The notes beneath the pieces are model-generated. The model had not been told where the DNA came from, made no database searches, and was given only the letters and a program-made list of their open reading frames with translations. A stretch of 64,000 bases of DNA from assembly GCA_002099625.1 (NCBI GenBank), contig GCA_002099625.1_4857.1, one strand, 5' to 3'. Both the position numbers and the translations under genes were made by a program. The DNA is from Escherichia coli. Lineage in GTDB: Bacteria > Pseudomonadota > Gammaproteobacteria > Enterobacterales > Enterobacteriaceae. This document shows, piece by piece, positions 10 to 9,318 of this stretch (position 1 is the stretch's first letter; each line of letters begins with the position of its first letter).

Positions 10-3000
10 ATGTCGGCGTATCCTGGGGTGAATCTGGTTGCTATTCTGATTACCGGTACAGATGCAATGATCTGCTTAGGCAGTGACTATGCGTATTATC
101 TGGTCATCTTTGACGGCACCATTGACCATGCAAAACATCATCGCGTTGTTAAAGTTTACTTGGGCGATTACCGAAATGGTAACGCGGCCGGTGTGATTAC
201 AACCACACCATGGGTTGCCGATCCATCAACAAACGATTTGATCGTTTGCAACGATCGGGTTTATCTACTCCGCACTGTCCTTACCTCCGGTGACTATTTC
301 GTGAGTATGCGTAGCATCGCACTCAACGAACTTAATCTGGGTGGTAGCAACACGTTTGTGGCGGATGTGTTAACAGGTGGGATGTTAACGTCGGGAGATA
401 ATATCTACTTGCGTCAGGGTCAGAAACGTTCTGATACAGATGTGTTGGTAGCGCCAGTAACACAAATCTACGCAGATGCATCGGCGAAGTGGAATAGTGC
501 GCGAAATTTCGTCCATGGTCCGGAATGTAATCACGCGATTGCTGTGGATGGGCTGAACTTTCGTGTTGGTTTAACGCCAACAGTCTGGTTTGCTTCTACT
601 ACAGGGCAAACTATTAACTTTAAACAATGGGTGTCAAGCTTTGTTGTTGATTGCAGTTCAATGACGGTAACGCTGGAAGGTGCCGATCGATTCCCTATCG
701 TGGCCGATCTTACCACGGTCCGTTATAACGGCGGGGCTGAGATTGGGATTCCGAGCCGGAAGTGGGGCGAAGGTCAAGCTAATAACCGAACCTTTGCAAC
801 ATCGCAAGACAAGTATATTGTTTCGCAAGGACATGCAGGCGATCGCGACCTAATGCCTTATGTCACGATTACAACGTTAGATGACGGTGTGAGTTGGTAC
901 GAGTACCTGTCGTGTGACTACAACTTCACTGCCAGAAGTTTTAGTGCGGTAATGTTAAACCAAGGTCGTGGTTCTATCTACGAGCTGGGTATGGCGTATC
1001 CGCTGACTCTGGGAGCGAATTCCAGACTTATCTGGTTGTCACAACCGCGTTCCCGTTTGGCAATTGAAGTTGAGTTTGATCCGAACACCACTTACTCAGG
1101 TAAGGCGGGGTATGGCCCAACTAACAATCGTCGTGTAGTAGATTCTATCACGTATGAGAATCTGTCGCAGATGTGCCACATTGTTACACCGGCGTCGCCT
1201 GGTACAGAGTTAAACGGCTGGTATTGCACAGGACCAGAAACATTCCCTTACCACAACGTTTCCGGCACTTTCACGATTCATGCCGATCGATTGACGCTGT
1301 CACAAGCTGAATGGGATAAGATGAAGCAGATGATCATCGACGGAGCACCGGCAGGCGCTGCGAATGGTTATGCTTCGGAATTTATCCTTGCTGCAAATAA
1401 CGCAGGAAAGGCATTGTTTTCCGTTTGGTTCATCGGCATCGGAACGGCCACACCGCTCACATTAGCACAAGTAGCATGTACACGTACTGTGAACAATGTT
1501 AACTTGTTAGATATCTACTACTTTACACTGAAACCAACAATCAGCAACGGGCAGGTAACATTCCCCGCAGCGATATTGGCACTGTTTGACTTCTATAACA
1601 ACCTCGACTATGGCTTGAACTATGCTACGTTGGGAGAGATAACGGGAGGAAAAACACGCCGGCCGGGACAACCTACCATGGTGTCGGTAGATGGTACGCA
1701 GTTCGGGTTGTATCTTCCACACACGTTAACCTTGCGCCAGATTGGCGACTTGGGTGCGCTTAACTACGCTGCTGGTCTTACGCTGTCTAATGGTACCTGG
1801 ACGCGTTCTTCTGCACCACACGGCGTTGGACGTATGGCACCGTCACACACTCCAGTCAGCCCAGCTTATCTGGCTCATCGTGATCAGGTGATGCTACACA
1901 ACTCATCTCTCGACTACGTCTATTGTGGTGGTATCGCAATGTCGTCGAGTGATTTTGTTGCACGTCCGAGTTTCGGTGGGGCGACTGAGACTGTTGTTAT
2001 CGCCGGTGTGGAAACAGCCGAAGGTTGGCTGGTATATGTGACTGAGGAAGTTAACCTGCGTTTCGGCTCGAGCACTTATAAGCTGCCTACGTGGTATATT
2101 GACCTCAGCGCAGCGTTTCCAACAAACCATCAGAACCGGACATTCTACCTGCACGCTAAGGTAGAAAATGGTACACCGAAGTACGTAATGGACGTGGTTC
2201 AACATCCAGACACTGAAACGGAACTCTACATCGGGTATGTTAAAACGGGCTCGTCGCGAGTCGTCGAGACTAACGTCGACCATGCTAAGCGATTGGGGGC
2301 GGTAAAACAGCTGTTGGAACACGCGGCGGTTGAGAATAAGCATGATGTGGAAGTGGGAAGGGATGCAGCAACGGGCAGACTGGCACCATTGCGTAAAGAA
2401 GCGATGGGTCCTTTGTCAGTCGATGCTACGAAAGGCTATCTGGATAGTCAGTTGCTTTATACCGTATCTGACGCACAGCGTCGCGGTAAAGCGATGGTGT
2501 CCAAACGTTTCGAAGGCTTGAAAACTTTGCCGGCGTTTACTCAGGCAAACAAGTCGGGGGCGTTTTGGAAACATCCTACAACAATCGCGACGGTAACGGC
2601 CGACGAGAACAGTGAAGCGACATCGTTGGGTATGGAGTGGGTAGGTATTCCAACGCCCGCTTTCGCTCCGACTTCAACAAACTTGATGGTGGTGGTGCAA
2701 AGTAAATTCGTCGTCCCAGGTACACTGGGAGTAGAAACGACCTTTAATGTCCACGTTGCCCCATGGGAGGCGGTGGATGGCTTTTTCTACAACGTCGAGG
2801 CGGAAGGTACGGATGTTAACATTGACGAAAATCCAGAAGTGTTATTGCCGTCACCACATACCGTGCACCACAAACAGCACTCTCTGCCAGCAGGCGTGCC
2901 GTGCACCTTTACATTTGTCGCGGCGGTAAGTTCTTCAGCGCTCGAAACAGCTAACCAGCATATTTGCTCTTGGCTTTTCACGGACGCTGGGGGTCTACCA

Positions 3001-3276
3001 ATCACCACCGATCTTTCGGATAGTAAGATTCAAATCTTACCACAGTCGGGAGAGACCAACGGCACACCAGTTGTTCTGAACAGTCGTAGCTACACGTTTA
3101 CGAATGTGACAGGTGCAATCCCGGTTGTTACCACGGGCGCTCAGGGTTTATTCCCACCACCGATCGTGGCGTGGGATGGCGATGATCTTACGTTAACGAT
3201 TGCGCACGATTGGGTGAACGAGAGAGGACGTCAACAGCCTGATATTATCCAGGTCAATCTTATGTTCCGTACCTAA
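10..3276 (+). CDS. large virion structural protein (putative tail-fibre/baseplate-associated); possibly 5'-partial
   Basis: 1088-aa ORF from first in-window ATG; positions 1-9 are in-frame sense codons so the gene may start upstream of the window; no enzymatic motif recognised; immediately precedes a fibre-like gene. Confidence 0.6.
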   Translation: MSAYPGVNLVAILITGTDAMICLGSDYAYYLVIFDGTIDHAKHHRVVKVYLGDYRNGNAAGVITTTPWVADPSTNDLIVCNDRVYLLRTVLTSGDYFVSMRSIALNELNLGGSNTFVADVLTGGMLTSGDNIYLRQGQKRSDTDVLVAPVTQIYADASAKWNSARNFVHGPECNHAIAVDGLNFRVGLTPTVWFASTTGQTINFKQWVSSFVVDCSSMTVTLEGADRFPIVADLTTVRYNGGAEIGIPSRKWGEGQANNRTFATSQDKYIVSQGHAGDRDLMPYVTITTLDDGVSWYEYLSCDYNFTARSFSAVMLNQGRGSIYELGMAYPLTLGANSRLIWLSQPRSRLAIEVEFDPNTTYSGKAGYGPTNNRRVVDSITYENLSQMCHIVTPASPGTELNGWYCTGPETFPYHNVSGTFTIHADRLTLSQAEWDKMKQMIIDGAPAGAANGYASEFILAANNAGKALFSVWFIGIGTATPLTLAQVACTRTVNNVNLLDIYYFTLKPTISNGQVTFPAAILALFDFYNNLDYGLNYATLGEITGGKTRRPGQPTMVSVDGTQFGLYLPHTLTLRQIGDLGALNYAAGLTLSNGTWTRSSAPHGVGRMAPSHTPVSPAYLAHRDQVMLHNSSLDYVYCGGIAMSSSDFVARPSFGGATETVVIAGVETAEGWLVYVTEEVNLRFGSSTYKLPTWYIDLSAAFPTNHQNRTFYLHAKVENGTPKYVMDVVQHPDTETELYIGYVKTGSSRVVETNVDHAKRLGAVKQLLEHAAVENKHDVEVGRDAATGRLAPLRKEAMGPLSVDATKGYLDSQLLYTVSDAQRRGKAMVSKRFEGLKTLPAFTQANKSGAFWKHPTTIATVTADENSEATSLGMEWVGIPTPAFAPTSTNLMVVVQSKFVVPGTLGVETTFNVHVAPWEAVDGFFYNVEAEGTDVNIDENPEVLLPSPHTVHHKQHSLPAGVPCTFTFVAAVSSSALETANQHICSWLFTDAGGLPITTDLSDSKIQILPQSGETNGTPVVLNSRSYTFTNVTGAIPVVTTGAQGLFPPPIVAWDGDDLTLTIAHDWVNERGRQQPDIIQVNLMFRT

Positions 3277-3323
3277 CAGATAGCGCTATGGGGCAAGGAA
3301 GCCCCAATCAAAGGAGTTTGGCA

Positions 3324-4526
3324 ATGGCCGAAATCATTTATCAGTACCCGCTTGACCTTACCGGGACATTAACGTCGAACGCCGTTACGCGGCGTATTAC
3401 GTTAGGTTCTGGTAAAGTTAACCGGGCTTTTGCATTTCCTGACGGAGCTTTCTACGCGGATACCTTCCGCTTGGCGGCTGCGAATAAACCAGGTGTCTAC
3501 CCGTACAAACGCGGCACAGACTACGAACTGATTTTTGCACATACTGCATATCAGAAAATGACCAAGAACCGCGAAGTGGTCATGGGTGTGGTGGTAACTA
3601 ACTCGGCCATTCCTACTGATATCGAAGTCTCTGCGCAAGTCGTTGGTGGTTTTCAGTCCGCGAACGTCGAAGGTATCCGACAAGCGATTGCGTCGTTGAA
3701 AATTGAAGACCGTGTGGTGGACTTCAAGGATCTTCGAAACGTACCTGATACGTTCCCATCCGCCCCGACGTATAAAGACCTTGGCGATATCTACGGTTTT
3801 GAGTATATCATTACCGTACTCGCTGGGATTAAAGATGCGATTAACTCCGGCTCTGCAGTACAGCTGGAAGAAATCAAAGGTATTCTGGACGGTCTGAAAA
3901 ACGACTTCCTCGATGCCTTAAATGCCCACGTCAACGCCGAAGGTAACGTACACAATCTCGACATTCATCAGGTTAATGGCCTGACGGAGACGGAGATTCG
4001 TGCTCTGATTCAAAGTGTACAGACTGCCATTGACGCCACTATCAAAGATATCGGCGACTTAAGAGCAGCAGACACGGCGTTGGGACAACGCATCGATGCA
4101 GTTGTGGCTTCGTTAGCCGCGTGGAACGACCAGCTTAATGTAGTTGCTCAAAATTACCAGAAAATGTCGTTAGCATTAGCTAACCTTAATTCTCTGGTGT
4201 TGCAATTACAGAAGAAGGTTAACGATCTTCAGTCTGCGCTGAATGAAACAAATCAGCGTGTCACGGATCTTGAGAATCAGGGCAAAGACTTCCAACAGCA
4301 AATTGATAACCTGCAAGGACAAATCAACAGTCTTAAAACTCAGGTTGTAAACAACACCAACGCAATTTCGCAGGCAAACCAGAATCTGGCGAACCATGCG
4401 GCTGCGGATAACCCACACCCGAATTACCTCCATAAACAGTATGGCGGTGTTGTGCAGGCTGCTGTTCACGTCAACAACAACCTCACCTCGCGCGACGATG
4501 TTCAAGCTGAAGCGGGTACTAAGTAA
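3324..4526 (+). CDS. coiled-coil tail-fibre-like protein
   Basis: ORF 3288-4526 trimmed to ATG 3324, preceded by AAGGAG at 3311-3316; C-terminal half has heptad-like coiled coil (LQKKVNDLQSALNETNQRVTDLENQGKDFQQQIDNLQGQINSLKTQ). Confidence 0.6.
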   Translation: MAEIIYQYPLDLTGTLTSNAVTRRITLGSGKVNRAFAFPDGAFYADTFRLAAANKPGVYPYKRGTDYELIFAHTAYQKMTKNREVVMGVVVTNSAIPTDIEVSAQVVGGFQSANVEGIRQAIASLKIEDRVVDFKDLRNVPDTFPSAPTYKDLGDIYGFEYIITVLAGIKDAINSGSAVQLEEIKGILDGLKNDFLDALNAHVNAEGNVHNLDIHQVNGLTETEIRALIQSVQTAIDATIKDIGDLRAADTALGQRIDAVVASLAAWNDQLNVVAQNYQKMSLALANLNSLVLQLQKKVNDLQSALNETNQRVTDLENQGKDFQQQIDNLQGQINSLKTQVVNNTNAISQANQNLANHAAADNPHPNYLHKQYGGVVQAAVHVNNNLTSRDDVQAEAGTK

Positions 4527-4533
4527 CTTGTTT

Positions 4534-4580
4534 ACGAGCCGGACTATGTTTATGGACATAGTCCGCTCGTTCTACTTTTT
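4534..4580 (+). terminator. rho-independent terminator after fibre gene
   Basis: about 14-bp imperfect inverted repeat ACGAGCCGGACTATG / CATAGTCCGCTCGT followed by TCTACTTTTT, just before the RBS of the first Cys-rich peptide gene. Confidence 0.5.
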
Positions 4581-4591
4581 AAGGAAGCGTA

Positions 4592-4984
4592 ATGGCGATA
4601 TCTATTAAAGACGTCAGAAACCGCGTCCAGATAGTCGAAGCTAACATGGCGACAGGCCCCCGTATCGACGCGCAAGTGGCCTCTAAAGCCCATAATGCGG
4701 CAGACCGATTTGGGGGTTGGACGAAAGCACAGCTAGATTGCGGCGGGACATGTTCTTGGACGTGCTCTAACGGTTGCTCGCATGGCTGTTCGAGCTGTTC
4801 AGGAAGCTGTTCTGCTTCTTGTATCGGTAGCTGTTCTTCGACGTGTGGCGGTAACTGTTCTGGTTGCTCTGGTTGTTCTGGTGGTTGCAGTAGTAGCTGT
4901 ACCGGTAACTGTTCAGGTGGTTGCGGCGGCTCTTGTTCCGCAAACTGCTCCGGGGCCTGCTCCGGCGGCTGTTCAGGTCGCTAA
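4592..4984 (+). CDS. Cys/Ser/Gly-rich repeat peptide A (putative radical-SAM substrate / precursor-like protein)
   Basis: 130 aa; AAGGAAG RBS then ATG; N-terminal about 49-aa Cys-free leader-like region, then 81-aa core with 22 Cys at period about 4 (CSxx repeats); ends CSANCSGACSGGCSGR. Confidence 0.6.
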   Translation: MAISIKDVRNRVQIVEANMATGPRIDAQVASKAHNAADRFGGWTKAQLDCGGTCSWTCSNGCSHGCSSCSGSCSASCIGSCSSTCGGNCSGCSGCSGGCSSSCTGNCSGGCGGSCSANCSGACSGGCSGR

Positions 4985-4994
4985 GGGGGATTAA

Positions 4995-5399
4995 ATGGCA
5001 ATTGGATTAAAAGAACTGAATAACCGATTAAACACGATCGATGCAAACGCTTTAAAGAACACCACGAATGTGCAAAACTACATTCGCAATAAAGCTACGA
5101 ATAACGCCGACTTGTTCGCAGGTCAAGGCCGTTCGCACTATGACTGTGGCGGCACATGCTCTTTTAGTTGCTCGAGTTGTTCTGGCGGGTGTACTGGGTC
5201 CGCTACGGGTGGTTGTGGGTCGACTTGTTCCGCAAACTGTGTATCGGGCTGTAGCAGCAGCTGTACGGGCTGTAGCTCTTCGTGCTCGGGTGGTTGTAGC
5301 GGCACGTGCACAGGCAGCTGTTCTGGGGGTTGTGGTAAATCCTGCTCCGCAAACTGCTCAGGTGCGTGCTCTGGTGGTTGTTCAGGTCCTAACTCCTAA
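4995..5399 (+). CDS. Cys/Ser/Gly-rich repeat peptide B (paralogue of A)
   Basis: 134 aa; AGGGGGA RBS then ATG; leader-like N-terminus similar to A (M-A-I-x-(I/L)-K-(D/E)-(V/L)-(R/N)-N-R); core begins HYDCGGTCSFSCS and ends CSANCSGACSGGCSG as in A. Confidence 0.6.
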   Translation: MAIGLKELNNRLNTIDANALKNTTNVQNYIRNKATNNADLFAGQGRSHYDCGGTCSFSCSSCSGGCTGSATGGCGSTCSANCVSGCSSSCTGCSSSCSGGCSGTCTGSCSGGCGKSCSANCSGACSGGCSGPNS

Positions 5400-5414
5400 C
5401 TGACGGAGGCTTAT

Positions 5415-5621
5415 GTGATCAGTCTCAAGGCTATTCGAAACCGTCTCGTTACGGCAGAAGGTTACATTACAACCGCACAGGCAAACAACTATATCGCTAA
5501 CCAGGGCACCGTGTCAACCACGAACAACCTGGCTGGTTTACCGCTTTCCCACTATAACTGTAATGGTGGGTGTAGCTGGTCCTGCAGCGGAAGCTGTAGC
5601 CGTGGAGCGGGGAATCGATAA
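5415..5621 (+). CDS. short Cys-rich peptide C (truncated-core paralogue of A/B)
   Basis: 68 aa; GGAGG at 5405-5409, GTG start (an ATG at 5413 runs straight into TGA); leader similar to A/B (MISLKAIRNRL); core only CNGGCSWSCSGSCSRGAGNR. Confidence 0.45.
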   Translation: MISLKAIRNRLVTAEGYITTAQANNYIANQGTVSTTNNLAGLPLSHYNCNGGCSWSCSGSCSRGAGNR

Positions 5622-5643
5622 CAGAAAACGTTCGGAGTATTAA

Positions 5644-6531
5644 ATGAAAAACGATTTGCATCTTGCGTATAAAACCACATTCAACCACCCGCTGCATCTA
5701 TCTTCCCCAGACTCGGTGCGTGCACACCTCGCTGACAAAGTCAGACTGATTGCACAGATTCCTGGTGAGTGGCCAAAGGTTCGTGGTCGCTTCTTGACCG
5801 ACAAGAAGAACTACACCGTAGAAAATACGTTTAAGATCCGTGATATGGTTGCAGAGGCCATCGTTATCTTTAACGGCGATGGTAACTCTCGCGGCGTGTT
5901 AGTCGACGGTAAGTATTTCTTCAGTGAAGGGATTTTGAACAACAGCGTCGATTTAGAACTGATGTTTACACCGTTTGACGAACTTGAAGCAAAACCGATG
6001 GCGCGCCGTTGGTGGAGTCCGGACTATCTGGGCTCGTTCCCTTACTACTTTGTACTGGTACCTGCCGATACGGAAACGTATTTCGACACCGAACCATACA
6101 TCGATATCGAGGGGTATAAAGAACTCGGCATCACCCGTTTAGCGGACATGATGGCGTATAGCTATAAGTTCGTGTGGGATAAAAAGCGTTCTGTCTGGTA
6201 TGCGCTGACTGACGATTTTGAAATCACCAAGCGTATTCGTAAGCCGTGGATGCAACACCTGGTTCAAACTCGATATGGGGATTACCCGGCGACAGAAGCG
6301 GATTTGAGTAAGCTGGTAAGTTTCCTCTTAACGAAGGTGGATTTAACGAAAGAAGAAGCAGAAGCTGTTTCTGAGATTCGTGGTCGTTCGGTAACGTTGG
6401 CCGATTTGAAACGTCTGAACGAAAGACACGCCGACCTGAACAAAATTTTAGCTGCCTATCACGACCCGATGTTACTGGTGCCTGGCGCTAACGTAGACGA
6501 AGATCCTTTATTCGCCATTGATTATATTTAA
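5644..6531 (+). CDS. hypothetical protein (Cys-peptide/rSAM operon member)
   Basis: 295-aa ORF with ATG start and GGAG RBS; no motif recognised; sits between peptide genes and rSAM genes. Confidence 0.55.
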   Translation: MKNDLHLAYKTTFNHPLHLSSPDSVRAHLADKVRLIAQIPGEWPKVRGRFLTDKKNYTVENTFKIRDMVAEAIVIFNGDGNSRGVLVDGKYFFSEGILNNSVDLELMFTPFDELEAKPMARRWWSPDYLGSFPYYFVLVPADTETYFDTEPYIDIEGYKELGITRLADMMAYSYKFVWDKKRSVWYALTDDFEITKRIRKPWMQHLVQTRYGDYPATEADLSKLVSFLLTKVDLTKEEAEAVSEIRGRSVTLADLKRLNERHADLNKILAAYHDPMLLVPGANVDEDPLFAIDYI

Positions 6532-6553
6532 AAATATACTGGAGCAACCTGCA

Positions 6554-7468
6554 ATGACAGATCAAGTAGAATCCAGGATCTCGTCTGAACTGTACGACAA
6601 ACCGTCAATTCTGTCGGTTGTCGCAACTTCTAAGTGTAACTTAGACTGTAGCTTCTGTGGAGGGGCTTATTACATGGATAGAGAAGATACTTCTCGTGAG
6701 TTTCAACGTGAAGAGATTCTCTCGATTTTAGAGAAGAATCCGGATATCGGTGAGATTCATTGGACGGGCGGTGAGCCGCTGTTAGCGCAGCGTAAGATTG
6801 AAGACTTCGTGAACGAGTTGAAGGAGTCTCATCCGAACCTCCGTCATCACATGTACACCAACGGTTTAAAGATGCGTAAATCACATCTGCCGTTGCTGAA
6901 ACAGTTCGACCTTATCTTTGTGTCCATTGACGGCTACAAGAAGTCGGAACGTCCGTTTATGAACTTTGTAAACGGTGGTAATCACGAAGCGCTGGAAGTG
7001 CTGTACGAGCTGGACAATTATTACACCTGGGGTGTGATGACGCGTGACCAGTTAGGCGATAAACGCTGGTACGAAGATTTCATCGAGCTGCACCGAGCAA
7101 TCTATCATTACCGTCCAGGTGGTGTGTCGTTGTTGTTTGATGCGATGATGCCGAAACCGTTATCGCCAGACCACGTCATGAACTTCATGTACGGGTATTG
7201 GAAAATACTCGACAATATCGAACGCCTTAACATGCAGAACGACTCTGAATGTGGGCTTGCGATCAGTAAAATGTTCGATACCGAGTGCAACACGTGCAGT
7301 GAAGTGCTGTGGCTTAACGCCGACGGTACGCAGGAGCAAATTCAGAACGCCCCAGAGATATTGGAAGTCGGCTGTAATCGCCTGGCGCGTTCTATCGGCG
7401 TTGATGCGTATAACTACATCAACCGTGTAATTTCTGCTAAGCGTAAACGGGCGGCGAACAATGAGTAA
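6554..7468 (+). CDS. radical SAM enzyme (putative peptide/protein-modifying maturase)
   Basis: ORF 6518-7468 trimmed to ATG 6554 (GGAG upstream; 6518 appears to be TTG); CNLDCSFC = CxxxCxxC 4Fe-4S/SAM motif; WTGGEPLL SAM-binding glycine motif; four C-terminal Cys (partial auxiliary-cluster region). Confidence 0.75.
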   Translation: MTDQVESRISSELYDKPSILSVVATSKCNLDCSFCGGAYYMDREDTSREFQREEILSILEKNPDIGEIHWTGGEPLLAQRKIEDFVNELKESHPNLRHHMYTNGLKMRKSHLPLLKQFDLIFVSIDGYKKSERPFMNFVNGGNHEALEVLYELDNYYTWGVMTRDQLGDKRWYEDFIELHRAIYHYRPGGVSLLFDAMMPKPLSPDHVMNFMYGYWKILDNIERLNMQNDSECGLAISKMFDTECNTCSEVLWLNADGTQEQIQNAPEILEVGCNRLARSIGVDAYNYINRVISAKRKRAANNE

Positions 7469-8789
7469 TAGCGAACAGCAAATCCAGTACACACCACGCA
7501 CGTATCAGGTTGTGACTAACCTGTCATGTAACCTGGACTGCGAATACTGCTACGAGCGTAAATATCCGCGTAACAACAAAGTAGCAGACGTGATTGATTT
7601 TATCCACGCTTGTTTCGAGCGTGATAAAGATATCCCGAACGTTGAAGTCATCATCGATATCATCGGTGGTGAGCCGTTCATGCAGCCTAAACTTCTTTTG
7701 GCGGCCTTTGAAACCGCAGAGAAGTTATGCGCAGAACACAATCGCCCGTATATGTTCAGTATCTCCACGAACGGTACGCTTCTGGACCGTCCGCTGAACA
7801 AAGAAATTATCGAGCGCTGGAAAGACAAACTGTCTATTGGGGTCTCCATCGATGGTTTACCTGAAGTCCATGACAAATATCGTATCTTTACCACGACGCG
7901 TGAAGGGTCGTACGAAGCTGCGGTACGCGGTTACAATTATCTGAAGAGTGTTGGCATCGCTGAACTGGGCGTAAAAGCGACGTTTACGATCGATACATTG
8001 CCGCACTATGCCGCCAGCATGAAATCGTTAATTGACATGTCCGGCGGTGGTACCATTTCTGGTAATGTAACGTACGAAGATATCCTGCCGCGCCATATGG
8101 CGTTGGATATCGCGAACCAGATGATGGACGTGATGGACTACTGGATTGAGAAGGGTCTGCACACCAACCCGCGTAACACGATTACACACATCATCCCGGA
8201 TGGCCTGAACTTTATGGCAACTTGGGACCCGGATTGGCGTGACAAACTCTTGCACGACGACTCTGTTCGTCTCGACCCAGAACGCCTGAAACCGTACTGC
8301 GGTACGTTGACGCACATGACCTGTCTCGGCTTTGATCGCAAGATTTACGGTTGTAACCGTTTCATGTCCACGGTAACTTCCCGCTCTGCTGTAGCGGAAC
8401 TGGTCGGTCGTGAGTTTGTGAGTCTGGACGGTGGTAAGCTGTTAGAAGAGATTCAAACGCAGTACACCAACTACCCAGAAACCTGTTTAGGGTGTCCGAT
8501 GAAGCACAGCTGCGGTAGCTGCGCAGCAGCATCGTACGAAAACGGTGAAGGTACACTGGAAGACCGTAAAGCGTATCACGCCGAGCGTCGTCAGTGTGGT
8601 TGGACTACTGCGAAGCTGATGGCGGCGGAATATTGGTATCAAAAAACTGGTACGACTCGCGCATCAGATTTGCACGATAAATCCATGTGCTATTGTTCAC
8701 GTTGTGTACGCCAACGTGCCGAAGCAGAAAAATTACAAAACGGAGCCCAGAATGAAGTCAATACTGATTCACAATTTTACGAAGCGTAA
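7461..8789 (+). CDS. radical SAM enzyme with SPASM-like C-terminal Cys cluster
   Basis: 442 aa; ATG overlaps the stop of the upstream rSAM gene by 8 nt (translational coupling); CNLDCEYC motif; IGGEPF motif; C-terminal PYCG..MTCLG..GCNRF..ETCLGCPMKHSCGSC seven-Cys pattern typical of SPASM auxiliary clusters. Confidence 0.8.
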   Translation: MSNSEQQIQYTPRTYQVVTNLSCNLDCEYCYERKYPRNNKVADVIDFIHACFERDKDIPNVEVIIDIIGGEPFMQPKLLLAAFETAEKLCAEHNRPYMFSISTNGTLLDRPLNKEIIERWKDKLSIGVSIDGLPEVHDKYRIFTTTREGSYEAAVRGYNYLKSVGIAELGVKATFTIDTLPHYAASMKSLIDMSGGGTISGNVTYEDILPRHMALDIANQMMDVMDYWIEKGLHTNPRNTITHIIPDGLNFMATWDPDWRDKLLHDDSVRLDPERLKPYCGTLTHMTCLGFDRKIYGCNRFMSTVTSRSAVAELVGREFVSLDGGKLLEEIQTQYTNYPETCLGCPMKHSCGSCAAASYENGEGTLEDRKAYHAERRQCGWTTAKLMAAEYWYQKTGTTRASDLHDKSMCYCSRCVRQRAEAEKLQNGAQNEVNTDSQFYEA

Positions 8790-9318
8790 ACTGCACTTGG
8801 TCGATCGCTTCCTGCGCAAAAGCAAGCTGTACAATGTGCACGCAATTGTGGCAGGGGAAGACTTCACTGATGAAATCCAAAGCCTGTTGATTAAATACGG
8901 GCTGAATGTGATGATCCCGGTCTACTGCGTTGAGAAAGGACACGAGTCTGTCGCGGAAATCGAAAAGCGCAACCCTGGCTTTGAGAAGCGACTGCTTGCA
9001 TACCCACGCCACAAAATCGAACTGCTACGTCACTCTATTGATGAAGCCAGTCCTGAAAGTTTAGTGGCATTGGGCTTGTCATTCCCGCGGATGCGTATTC
9101 GTAACTTACGCTCCAATAACCCGGTTGACGCTTATTACACAGAACGTCAAATCTTCGAAGAACACCTGCTCCCGCAGTTGGAAGAAGAAGAGCAACACAA
9201 CATTTCTCTGTTGTGGGCCGGTAACCTCGATCAGGACTTCCAGATGCTGGACTTCGGTTTGTTGTTAGAACTTGGCCTGATTGAGGAGGACGAATGTCTG
9301 TTACTGACAAAAGCTTAA
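8752..9318 (+). CDS. hypothetical protein (operon member)
   Basis: ORF 8704-9318 (apparently GTG start) trimmed to ATG 8752 with GGAG at 8742-8745; overlaps end of rSAM gene; no motif recognised. Confidence 0.45.
   Translation: MKSILIHNFTKRKLHLVDRFLRKSKLYNVHAIVAGEDFTDEIQSLLIKYGLNVMIPVYCVEKGHESVAEIEKRNPGFEKRLLAYPRHKIELLRHSIDEASPESLVALGLSFPRMRIRNLRSNNPVDAYYTERQIFEEHLLPQLEEEEQHNISLLWAGNLDQDFQMLDFGLLLELGLIEEDECLLLTKA

Follow-up and report, generated by a model that had tools for sequence, protein, structure and literature searches.

Three tandem ORFs in the window (the whole 64,000-nucleotide stretch of DNA analysed here) encode small proteins, A, B and C, in which Cys recurs mostly at every fourth residue. 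What are such proteins for? The sequence-only reading had given them a leader/core architecture and had considered a substrate for iterative enzymatic cross-linking, a metallothionein-like protein or a structural repeat protein; as a whole, this interpretation was partly supported. We found that the window represents an SPN3US-like jumbo phage and that A, B and C lie inside its tail-fibre module, between the genes of virion fibre proteins and a terminator (table 1).

Table 1. Features of the tail-fibre module, in positions of the window
Feature	Position	Strand	Description	Matches and details
gp168 homologue	10..3276	+	C-terminal 1088 aa; large baseplate/tail-fibre candidate, start of fibre module	phrog_7449; virion structural protein matches
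gp167 homologue	3288..4526	+	412-aa coiled-coil virion (non-head) structural protein, directly 5' of the peptides	phrog_2163; weak tail fibre families
RNA hairpin	4534..4570	+	Stable hairpin, then U-rich stretch; between gp167 stop codon and A start	
Peptide A	4592..4984	+	130 aa, 21 Cys	49-residue Cys-free N-terminal part, CGGTCSW junction, CXXX repeat core
Peptide B	4995..5399	+	134 aa, 20 Cys	Paralogue of A
Peptide C	5415..5621	+	68 aa, GTG start, 4 Cys	N-terminal part and junction as in A and B
gp165 homologue	5644..6531	+	295-aa accessory protein of the module	Fold without known relatives
gp164 homologue	6554..7468	+	Short radical SAM enzyme	PF04055, 1e-15; CNLDCSFC motif, four C-terminal Cys
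gp163 homologue	7461..8789	+	442-aa radical SAM/SPASM enzyme	Predicted maturase of A and B (and possibly C)
gp162 homologue	8752..9318	+	188-204 aa, function not assigned	phrog_7988
gp161 homologue	9294..9965	+	DUF4376 protein, last gene before terminator; tentative member of the module	PF14301, 2e-9; weak "tail protein" phrog_2837
Terminator-like hairpin	9983..10006	.	Strong, intrinsic-terminator-like, bidirectional; closes the plus-strand unit	10-bp stem, 7 GC pairs, T-runs on both strands

Coding of the Three Peptides

All three ORFs, with the positions and lengths first proposed for them, proved to be real genes. They matched phrog_6085 (5e-40 for A, 3e-41 for B and 3e-24 for C), and a Shine-Dalgarno-like sequence could be read 5' of each (AAGGAAG for A, AAGGGGGA for B and GGAGG for C). 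Among orthologues from five phage genera, synonymous sites were saturated, pN was 0.13-0.41 against a pS of 0.62-0.94, and third-position differences in the A/B/C frame prevailed in all 30 orthologue pairs. The gene order A-B-C was the same in Seoulvirus, Machinavirus, Derbicusvirus and Wellingtonvirus. Peptide A contained exactly 21 Cys in all five compared phages and in 14 of 14 SPN3US-clade IMG/VR loci; the C orthologues of Derbicusvirus and Wellingtonvirus have 2-3 Cys, the repeat having been lost in some genera.

Reference annotations imply something else, namely that A, B and C are not genes and that a DNA-level repeat overlaps a true coding frame elsewhere. Such other-frame or opposite-strand annotations exist for SPN3US gp166, Huxley gp176/177, Phobos gp167/168, CR5_157 and Kwan gp183/184. 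We regard the probability of this explanation, which the sequence-only reading had also named as what would overturn it, as negligible. The low pN relative to pS and the codon-position pattern both belong to the A/B/C frame, and Cys, junction and N-terminal residues are kept in the protein while the synonymous sites of the DNA are saturated. Each of the three starts has its Shine-Dalgarno sequence, whereas the alternative ORFs are low-complexity Val/Ala strings; a TGY-TCN-GGN codon repeat gives rise to these overlapping Val/Ala-rich ORFs, and to the antisense ones, as a side effect. The "gp166" of the SPN3US reference is a wrong-frame ORF at the position of peptide B. Gene callers mishandled genes of this type in many of the examined records and contigs (wrong frame, antisense or missed), and therefore proteomic searches are blind to them.

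Cys Repeat, Junction and Termini

The periodicity claimed for the cores was borne out. Successive Cys were 4 residues apart in 17 of 20 intervals in A, 16 of 19 in B and 3 of 3 in C, with about 20 Cys in each of A and B; the observed spacing was reached by 0 of 20000 core shuffles for A and for B and by 29 of 20000 for C. Over five phages, 175 of 200 Cys spacings were of 4 residues, 23 of 3 and 2 of 8, and the motifs CC and CxC were absent from the cores. The first Cys stands at residue 50 in A, 51 in B and 49 in C. That nearly every Cys is followed by Ser, Gly or Thr was also confirmed (20 of 21 in A, 19 of 20 in B). Cys makes up about 25% of the A and B cores, which contain no Asp or Glu; there is no Lys or Arg in the cores of A, B or C. 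Both A and B contain CSAN units.

The shared N-terminal region and junction were seen in the protein alignment of all three peptides, and in 15 sequences from five phages C50, G52, C54 and S55 of the junction were invariant and W56 nearly so. A and B do share their C-terminal ending, CSANCSGACSGGCSG, with 17 of 18 tail residues identical. Recent gene conversion was considered for these C-termini and rejected because 9 of the 18 tail codons differ synonymously. These synonymous differences favour co-selection; low complexity, however, inflates such identities. An AF2 model of B from a 23-sequence alignment had a pLDDT of 47 and no confident structure, with modest values only at N-terminal helices 5-19 and 23-35.

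The Module as a Tail-Fibre C-Terminus in Other Phages

In unrelated phages, tail-fibre proteins have in their C-terminal part a homologue of the Cys-free "leader" and CxGxCSW junction of A, B and C. These proteins, found via phrog_6085 or the junction profile, are recognised as tail fibres and carry T7-fibre N-terminal, collagen or tail-collar domains. One protein with junction and repeat as its C-terminus has 302 aa and tail-fibre-type repeats and is encoded beside a lambda-J-like gene in a Deferribacter prophage (L012). Another, of 568 aa, adjoins a T4 gp13-like one in a phage of 213 kb (L013), and a third is a Phage_tail_fib protein of 271 aa (L015; PF12571, 24.2 > 23). Junction and repeat likewise end a protein with a T7 tail-fibre N-domain (P0218; phrog_1640, 4e-31), a tail fibre with collagen repeats (P0227; phrog_5073, 7e-52) and a protein of a T7-like podophage (P0006). 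In at least seven examined loci, from at least six phage backgrounds, the Cys-repeat genes lie inside a late structural fibre operon. The expectation of a structural repeat protein gains support from the tail-fibre proteins of other phages, in which the module forms the C-terminal domain. The L012 fibre has, in addition, HxH repeats 5' of its Cys repeat.

The neighbours of A, B and C in the window fit the same setting. SPN3US gp168 is a virion protein that is missing from a tailless mutant (PMC5694885), and SPN3US gp167 was covered to 70% in virions with no head assignment (published virion proteomics). The region 4524-4595, which contains the hairpin ahead of A, folds at -24.1 kcal/mol (z = -3.9; 0 of 200 shuffles equally stable) and might act as an attenuator or stabiliser. 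The longest ORF of gp164 starts from TTG 6518, and the ATG at 6554 agrees with the EC001 annotation. gp162 is transcribed in the same direction, is not kept in the module outside the SPN3US-like clade and is absent from L012, L015 and L016; neither gp162 nor gp165 had a Pfam or NCBIfam match. The 64-kb window contains no tRNAs. A sigma-70 promoter scan gave fewer sites in it than in shuffles, as expected for a phage with RNA polymerases of its own; the SPN3US virion proteins include vRNAP subunits (published virion proteomics).

Target and Maturase Families

The only or best NCBIfam match of A, B and C was TIGR04114, a radical-SAM-target CXXX repeat, with 18.4, 17.1 and 13.7 bits, respectively, below the cutoff of 20. 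Homologues of the three peptides carry precomputed matches to PF27846 (tSAM_targ_Cxxx_rpt), many of them marked weak. This target system was reportedly defined by comparative genomics by Haft and Basu in 2011; to our knowledge it has database models and no biochemical characterisation. A limited search of the open-access literature found no paper on the present system and no published connection of this family, so far known only from bioinformatics, with tail fibres or their enzymatic cross-linking.

The best family match of gp163 was TIGR04115, the "CXXX-repeat target" maturase (3e-36; 125.6 bits, below the cutoff of 350), with a best stretch covering only model positions 8-227. It also matched the PapB family NF047865 over its full length (1e-32; 113.6 bits, below the cutoff of 340), and its other NCBIfam matches include the SCIFF and QhpD maturase families. 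The best PDB match was 5WGG (3e-10), which we take to be the SCIFF thioether maturase CteB. The radical SAM motif CX3CX2C lies at 23-30 (C23/C27/C30), and the SPASM Cys (280/288/298, 342/345/351/354 and 379) were invariant in the orthologue alignment. As the motif begins already at residue 23, gp163 has no N-terminal RRE domain, and it aligns to RRE-bearing maturase families only from their residue 90-106 on. gp163 has in these respects the make-up of a TIGR04115-type enzyme, although it scores below the cutoff of that family. It is encoded 1.8 kb downstream of the peptides.

Enzyme and target also occur together elsewhere. Among 80 IMG/VR viral loci with a gp163 relative, 76 had a CXXX-repeat ORF, and 3 of the remaining 4 lack upstream sequence. 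The arrangement was directional, with 93 CXXX ORFs upstream of the gp163 relative on the same strand and 7 downstream (median 1 kb). In the whole 64-kb window the CXXX detector found only A and B. The predicted role as a substrate for iterative cross-linking gains support from this co-occurrence, together with the near-cutoff TIGR04114 scores, the PF27846 homologues and the adjacent SPASM enzyme.

Bona fide TIGR04115 enzymes occur in the viral contigs L040, L043, L054, L078 and L092 (387-508 bits). Neighbours were examined at two such loci, and at both the enzyme is encoded in a tail module, after the genes of Dit and a minor tail protein. The SPN3US clade and L012, L013, L032 and L038 form a sister branch of this system, which stands out by a junction of its own (NAxxLxGxxxxYxCxGxCSW), by a gp165-like accessory and by having a short radical SAM enzyme as a second one. 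A four-gene module is conserved, in which the gp165-like accessory and both types of radical SAM enzyme accompany the Cys-repeat protein; gp164 orthologues adjoin Cys-repeat proteins in L012, L008 and L013. A 224-aa protein of L013 and a 172-aa protein of L008 had no similarity to gp165, so the accessory is not universal. For the larger family, with an "LKAKVK..RR" N-terminal domain, the tail context comes from three loci (L009, L054 and L078), and the N-terminal domains of the proteins themselves had no recognisable fibre domain.

Comparison with Known Systems

The CXXX-repeat system (TIGR04114/TIGR04115/PF27846) resembles the present one in having Cys at each fourth residue, long Ser/Gly/Thr-rich runs and, within about 1 kb, the gene of a radical SAM/SPASM enzyme that has no N-terminal RRE. 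It differs in that the target here is split into three small paralogues and that enzyme and peptides score below its cutoffs. The PapB/freyrasin (PapA) system has in common with ours the full-length similarity of the enzyme and the CSAN units of A and B. The freyrasin substrate is a short repeated unit with one Cys each, in six CSANDx units. In contrast, the unit here has 4 residues, not 6, and is present about 20 times. The A and B cores have no Asp/Glu acceptor, and so a PapB-type Cys-Asp link is impossible and the Cys-X3-Asp/Glu units of ranthipeptides are absent. The setting differs as well: the PapB system belongs to a bacterial biosynthetic cluster that includes a protease and an exporter, and the present one to a phage fibre operon.

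By sequence, no solved structure is closer to gp163 than that of CteB, and the two have a common SPASM cysteine pattern. CteB has an N-terminal RRE, which gp163 lacks; this fits the alignment of gp163 starting at CteB chain residue 106. A precedent for the cross-linking of a structural protein subunit, and not of a secreted peptide, is the SPASM enzyme QhpD, which acts on QhpC. Unlike A and B, the substrates of CteB and QhpD have few Cys and defined Thr/Asp/Glu acceptors. Two further systems are comparable by analogy only. T2/S16-type gp38 is a small, low-complexity Gly/Ser-rich protein with Gly-rich motifs, encoded just after the fibre genes, that binds the fibre tip, and in the Tenebrio antifreeze protein regular Cys (TCT motifs) staple a repetitive fold. 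Neither is enzymatically modified, and the disulphides of the latter form outside the cytoplasm.

A Proposed Cross-Linked Fibre Tip and Its Rivals

On balance, we favour the explanation that A, B and C each form a stand-alone fibre-tip module and that radical SAM enzymes encoded by the phage itself cross-link them covalently. In other phages the module is the far end of a tail fibre and stands beside dedicated radical SAM enzymes, so the fibres by which phages attach to their hosts may be enzymatically cross-linked. The three peptides would be separate copies of a C-[S/T/G]-[G/S]-x domain of about 20 units, which in other phages is the distal fibre C-terminus. They would be translated late, together with the fibre genes, and modified in the reducing cytoplasm by gp163, a SPASM enzyme whose branch is sister to the "CXXX-repeat target" maturases, and by gp164, as its short partner, with gp165 as an accessory. 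By analogy with the related enzymes CteB, PapB and QhpD, the chemistry would most likely be thioether formation from Cys, with each repeat contributing one cross-link to a ladder. Such cross-linking would make a rigid rod or knob, insensitive to redox conditions and resistant to proteases, out of a floppy Ser/Gly/Cys stretch, and in the virion the product might serve in adhesion or stiffening. The Cys-free N-terminal 48 residues would be the counterpart of the fibre shaft-to-repeat junction and not a disposable RiPP leader; they probably serve in oligomerisation or in docking on the gp167/gp168 fibre, and possibly in enzyme recognition (CxGxCSW). The scores of gp163 and of the peptides under the curated TIGR04115 and TIGR04114 cutoffs count against this explanation, as do the core without Asp or Glu as acceptor, the loss of the C repeat in some genera and the low-confidence model of B.

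A classical RiPP would instead have the N-terminal 48 residues as a cleaved leader and a cross-linked core that lysis sets free to act as a toxin, as a signal or against competitors. The leader-like and core-like parts, the small size, the three tandem precursor paralogues and the adjoining RiPP-type radical SAM/SPASM enzymes all suit this idea, and the PapB, SCIFF and CcpM maturase families, relatives of gp163, make peptide natural products. We nevertheless consider it unlikely. The genes scanned from 3288 to 9965 contained no match to a peptidase or transporter family, gp163 lacks the N-terminal RRE by which sactipeptide/SCIFF maturases bind a cleavable leader, and gp165 has no PqqD/RRE-like fold. 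Moreover, tail-fibre proteins of 200-570 aa that have the Cys repeat as their C-terminus contain a homologue of the "leader" as an internal segment, and the late fibre operon setting recurs across phage backgrounds. The leader/core architecture first proposed holds as a description and probably not as a mechanism, and export of A, B and C as RiPP natural products is improbable.

An enzymatically modified product might also be confined to assembly, with the Cys-repeat proteins acting as chaperones or assembly caps for gp167/gp168 and absent from the mature virion. Genes just 3' of fibre genes often encode chaperones, and fibre C-terminal domains are sometimes autocleaved chaperones that are removed after assembly, which also counts against the fibre-tip explanation. 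The SPN3US virion list includes gp167-173 and not gp161-166 (published proteomics); the database of the MS search did not include A, B and C, whose cores moreover lack Lys and Arg, and nothing can be concluded from their absence. The strict number of 21 Cys and the requirement for two dedicated radical SAM enzymes fit a durable structural product better than a transient helper, and a role restricted to assembly seems improbable to us. We judge it very unlikely that A, B and C are unmodified metal-binding or disulphide-rich proteins, of a metallothionein-like or antifreeze-like beta-solenoid type, with the radical SAM enzymes acting elsewhere. The regular spacing and high Cys content of the cores would suit such proteins, fibre tips of the T4 gp37 type bind metal via repeated His motifs, and the HxH repeats of the L012 fibre are in line with this. 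Yet the spacings in the window peptides are only 3 or 4, and metallothioneins have clustered CC, CxC and CxxC and no dedicated modifying enzyme; because of these spacings, the missing CC and CxC and the tie to radical SAM enzymes, the metallothionein-like suggestion of the sequence-only reading was not sustained. The co-occurrence with gp163-type enzymes is directional, their family is curated as the maturase of exactly this CXXX repeat, and disulphides presumably cannot form during cytoplasmic virion assembly.

Implications

If A, B and C are cross-linked fibre tips, radical SAM peptide chemistry would have phage receptor-binding fibres among its substrates, linking two separate fields, and the radical SAM genes in the tail modules of SPN3US-like jumbo phages and of hundreds of other viral contigs would be explained. 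Fibre assembly would then include an enzymatic step that depends on Fe-S supply and is affected by oxygen, with a bearing on host range and on the production of therapeutic phages. Un- or misannotated virion candidates would also be revealed in a genetic model phage with an amber-mutant system. It is conceivable, although we lean slightly against it, that the whole CXXX-repeat system (TIGR04114/TIGR04115 and the sister branch) is a widespread device of phages and not a natural-product pathway, one in which phage-encoded radical SAM enzymes staple, in the cytoplasm, the ribosomally made Cys-repeat end of fibres and tail-tip proteins into a thioether ladder. The host-recognition apparatus of a virion would then contain, for the first time, a RiPP-like structural element cross-linked by enzymes, built in SPN3US-like phages from three separate chains.

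The CXXX-repeat family would in any such case gain a biological role and, for RiPP enzymology, tractable substrates with about 20 identical modification sites per 130-aa peptide that are expressible in E. coli. The N-terminal parts contain the tryptic peptides VQIVEANMATGPR, IDAQVASK, AHNAADR and FGGWTK in A and LNTIDANALK, NTTNVQNYIR and ATNNADLFAGQGR in B.

Peptides A, B and C and Their Coding Status

The three tandem paralogous peptides A, B and C (130, 134 and 68 aa) were present exactly as the sequence-only reading had described them, and each is preceded by a Shine-Dalgarno-like sequence. The features claimed for them, about 20 Cys each in A and B, mostly at every fourth residue behind a Cys-free N-terminal part, were borne out: A, B and C contain 21, 20 and 4 Cys, the first only at residue 49-51, and 17 of 20, 16 of 19 and 3 of 3 successive intervals, respectively, are of four residues. 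None of 20000 core shuffles reached the four-residue spacing of A and B. Ser, Cys and Gly make up about 80% of the cores, with almost no Lys or Arg, and the composition count gave no Asp or Glu; a weak helical prediction was obtained for the N-terminal 48 residues. All three peptides belong to phrog_6085, and their matches to TIGR04114 ("Cys-rich repeat," model tSAM_targ_Cxxx; 18.4, 17.1 and 13.7 bits) were all below the cutoff of 20.

Over window positions 4400-9000, identity to the Salmonella jumbo phage SPN3US and to its relatives within Seoulvirus was 98-99%, and the SPN3US gene numbers are used here. The syntenic regions of Erwinia phages Huxley, Kwan and Phobos and Cronobacter phage CR5, with gp163 proteins 63-77% identical to that of the window, were compared. 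The A-B-C trio occurred in the same order in all four, every A having 21 Cys. Over five phages, the repeat unit was C-[S 65%/G/T]-[G 61%/S]-[G/S/T/N], and the 200 Cys spacings were of four (175), three (23) or eight residues (2). In codon alignments, third-position changes predominated in all 30 orthologue pairs, and pN (0.13-0.41) was well below pS (0.62-0.94, saturated). The A, B and C frames are under purifying selection, which rules out a DNA-level repeat with coding in another frame, the case that the earlier reading had set against itself; a non-coding repeat was likewise refuted by the codon-position and pN versus pS analysis. A, B and C are real genes with a real periodic Cys repeat.

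Public records are frequently wrong here. In SPN3US, B is overlain by "gp166," an ORF in a wrong frame, and neither A nor C is annotated; A and C are often left out of the five reference annotations (SPN3US, Huxley, CR5, Kwan and Phobos). Huxley gp176/177, Phobos gp167/168, CR5_157 and Kwan gp183 are antisense, Kwan gp184 is in a wrong frame, and all three peptides are annotated in some records only, such as EC001. These alternative ORFs, rich in Val and Ala, arise as by-products of the TGY-TCN-GGN codon repeat. With proteomic databases derived from the five reference annotations, these peptides cannot be detected. In published SPN3US proteomics, gp167-gp173 are virion proteins without head assignment, among which gp168-170 are baseplate or fibre candidates, and gp161-166 are absent from the virion protein list (PMC5694885).

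Coordinates of the features in the window and in comparison loci (L numbers, own coordinates); gp numbers from SPN3US gene mapping
Feature	Sequence	Position	Strand
gp168, end only	window	10-3276	
gp167	window	3288-4526	
Hairpin	window	4534-4570	
Peptide A (last residues)	window	4592-4984 (4930-4984)	
Peptide B (last residues)	window	4995-5399 (5345-5399)	
Peptide C	window	5415-5621	
gp165	window	5644-6531	
gp164, radical SAM	window	6518/6554-7468	
gp163, radical SAM	window	7461-8789	
gp162	window	8704/8752-9318	
gp161, DUF4376	window	9294-9965	+
Terminator-like hairpin	window	9983-10006	
gp160	window	10047-10574	-
Gly-rich ORF	window	13466-15643	-
Wrong-frame/antisense "hypothetical proteins" over A and B	window	4592-5621	
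Same	L001	6669-7004	
Same	L004	2256-2993	
Same	L005	2377-2589	
Same	L006	2224-2985	
Same	L007	2135-2956	
Peptide C orthologue	L005	2960-3166	
Peptide C orthologue	L006	2963-3169	
Peptide C orthologue	L007	2955-3140	
157-aa ORF	L013	5325-5798	
472-aa radical SAM protein	L013	6583-8001	
18-Cys ORF	L016	about 5020-5253	+
Second-class CXXX protein	L043	4756-6195	
Second-class CXXX protein	L054	4878-6575	
Second-class CXXX protein	L078	2932-4431	

Neighbouring Enzymes

gp163 is a radical SAM/SPASM protein with CX3CX2C at residues 23-30 and SPASM cysteines 280/288/298, 342/345/351/354 and 379, invariant in a 29-member alignment. Its top NCBIfam match was TIGR04115 ("radical SAM peptide maturase, CXXX-repeat target family," 3e-36), at 125.6 bits, below the 350-bit cutoff, and it also matched the PapB ranthipeptide maturase family over its full length (1e-32). 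The closest solved relative by sequence was PDB 5WGG, which we take to be the SCIFF thioether maturase CteB; the characterised relatives (CteB, PapB and QhpD families) form Cys thioethers. An N-terminal leader-recognition domain is absent from gp163. The other radical SAM protein, gp164, is shorter and has just four Cys in its C-terminal part. Across loci, gp165 homology was recovered with hhalign probabilities of 96.5-97.2%, and each of the two radical SAM types makes up an orthologous series of its own.

Relatives at the C-Termini of Tail Fibres

Searching with B retrieved larger proteins that combine the junction (...LAGQPANHYDCSGGCSWTCG...), the conserved CxGxCSW motif between the Cys-free part and the core, with a Cys repeat and extra N-terminal domains. 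The genomic contexts of these proteins and of distant gp163 homologues were consistent. In a T7-like podophage, portal, capsid, tube, nozzle, T7 tail-fibre N-terminal and collagen-like proteins are followed by a 213-aa Cys-repeat protein and a radical SAM gene (L008). In a Deferribacter prophage (L012), genes for an NlpC/P60 and then a lambda-J-like protein precede three others, which are followed in turn by those for a gp165 homologue, a short radical SAM enzyme and a SPASM radical SAM enzyme 38% identical to gp163; the third of the three (302 aa) has repeated tail-fibre-type motifs and ends in NADQLGGQAGSYYRCSDCSWTC and 29 Cys. A 213-kb phage (L013) encodes, after a T4 gp13-like gene, a 568-aa protein ending in NAVTLGGQPPDFYTCGGSCSWSC and 30 Cys (PF27846, the Pfam counterpart of the target repeat), and a pair of radical SAM genes comes next. 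In L015, a Phage_tail_fib protein with a Cys-repeat C-terminus is succeeded by a gp165 homologue and two radical SAM genes, as are, in bacterial contig GCA_964344215.1 (L016), a T7-type fibre and the unannotated 18-Cys ORF after it. In L009, a Laminin_G_3 protein precedes a Cys-repeat protein, with a radical SAM gene third in order.

PHROG and Pfam scans placed the phrog_6085 domain or junction-profile match at the C-terminus of proteins with recognised fibre N-termini, such as the N-domain of T7 tail fibres (3.7e-31), phrog_5073, a tail-fibre family (6.5e-52), accompanied by collagen repeats, and PF12571. The profile of the N-terminal part plus junction matched only 104 proteins (60-1679 aa) among 1.84 billion representatives, near the C-terminus in many of the longer ones. 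By sequence comparison, the A/B/C module is homologous to fibre C-termini, and it constitutes a conserved four-gene module and shows a tight, directional linkage to radical SAM/SPASM enzymes.

The 18-Cys ORF of L016 (MSRFFSRPNQQGAGCSGCSGSC...), missed by the gene caller, lies in a 254-nt "gap" between the T7-type tail-fibre gene and the gp165-like gene, and has a very short pre-repeat segment without the CSW junction. In L013, the C-terminal domain of the short-type radical SAM protein (472 aa) is duplicated internally, and the separate upstream 157-aa ORF is similar to both copies (blastp 1e-8).

Enzyme-Repeat Pairing in Viruses

Scanning IMG/VR with the gp163-family alignment revealed at least 489 viral stretches encoding relatives. 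Among the best 80, a CXXX-type ORF was present in 76; such ORFs lay upstream on the same strand (93) or downstream (7) of the enzyme, at a median of 1 kb, and three of the four loci without one had no upstream sequence. Applied to the whole 64-kb window in all six frames, the same detector picks out A and B and nothing else. The enzymes of L040, L043, L054, L078 and L092 passed the TIGR04115 cutoff (387-508 bits), and gp163 forms a sister branch to them with L032 and L038 (125-153 bits). Upstream genes encode Dit, a minor tail protein and a virion protein in L054, and tail and fibre proteins in L078. Thus, in these two bona fide examples, the TIGR04115 family itself is phage-carried, in tail modules.

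A second large class of viral CXXX proteins (L031-L096), with up to 105 Cys, has two partners, bona fide TIGR04115 enzymes and a small ORF (about 110 aa). Its conserved N-terminal domain (consensus ..LKAKVK.EM.RR.Y.GS...YDF..P..G) had no PHROG or Pfam annotation.

Proposed Function and Alternatives

We propose that gp163, perhaps with gp164 and gp165, probably makes a thioether cross-link from the Cys of each repeat. This would happen in the cytoplasm, whose reducing conditions do not allow disulphides. A rod or knob stapled by covalent bonds would result, and it would form or cap the distal end of the fibre. The first 48 residues correspond to the junction of the fibres and probably serve in oligomerisation or docking.

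A cleaved, exported RiPP natural product is unlikely: no recognised protease, exporter or RRE was found among the genes scanned between 3288 and 9965, the context is a structural operon, and the module is fused to fibres. A, B and C may instead be a transient assembly chaperone, to which we give a similarly low probability. An unmodified metal-binding or disulphide-rich protein is more improbable still, considering the linkage to radical SAM enzymes and the Cys spacing pattern, and the metallothionein-like option of the sequence-only reading is disfavoured on the same grounds.

The pairing of CXXX repeat and enzyme already exists as curated database models and was reportedly first described bioinformatically in 2011; we know of no biochemical work on it. 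A full-text search of open-access papers found nothing on this system or on radical SAM/SPASM enzymes linked to tail fibres. The SPN3US-type system is a divergent sister branch, in which three small proteins share the target and which has, in addition, a second enzyme and a new accessory protein. The broader insight, probably new, is that the CXXX-repeat family would belong to the phage adsorption apparatus.

Possible Cooperation of A, B and C, and Flanking Elements

The last residues of A and B share 17 of 18 compared positions, with 9 of 18 codons synonymously different. This A-B identity was 15-17 of 18 in four of five phages and 10 of 18 in Kwan, and most orthologue tail pairs shared 9-14 of 18, which suggests co-selection of the two C-termini, the identities being inflated by low-complexity composition. 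Together with the invariant 21 Cys of A and the joint conservation of the paralogues, the shared tails suggest that A, B and C work together; a three-chain assembly, in which the repeat of C is truncated, is possible. The C orthologues of Derbicusvirus and Wellingtonvirus keep the N-terminal part and the CxGxCSW junction, but have only 2-3 Cys and end in a different tail (SSGGAK...), and it may be that C does not serve as a repeat substrate.

A stable hairpin (-24 kcal/mol, z -3.9) with a U-rich stretch behind it separates the stop codon of gp167 from the beginning of A; it may act in attenuation, in processing or in stabilising the mRNA. The transcription unit of the fibre and radical SAM genes is closed by a predicted terminator, a strong bidirectional hairpin (10 bp, 7 GC) between the convergent gp161 and gp160. 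The gp160 homologue directly follows this unit; SPN3US gp160 is reportedly among the most abundant virion proteins and is head-assigned. Farther on, a 725-aa ORF with a Gly-rich centre (GGGGGDYY...GGAGGAPLGPGA...) adjoins endolysin and tail-assembly-chaperone genes.
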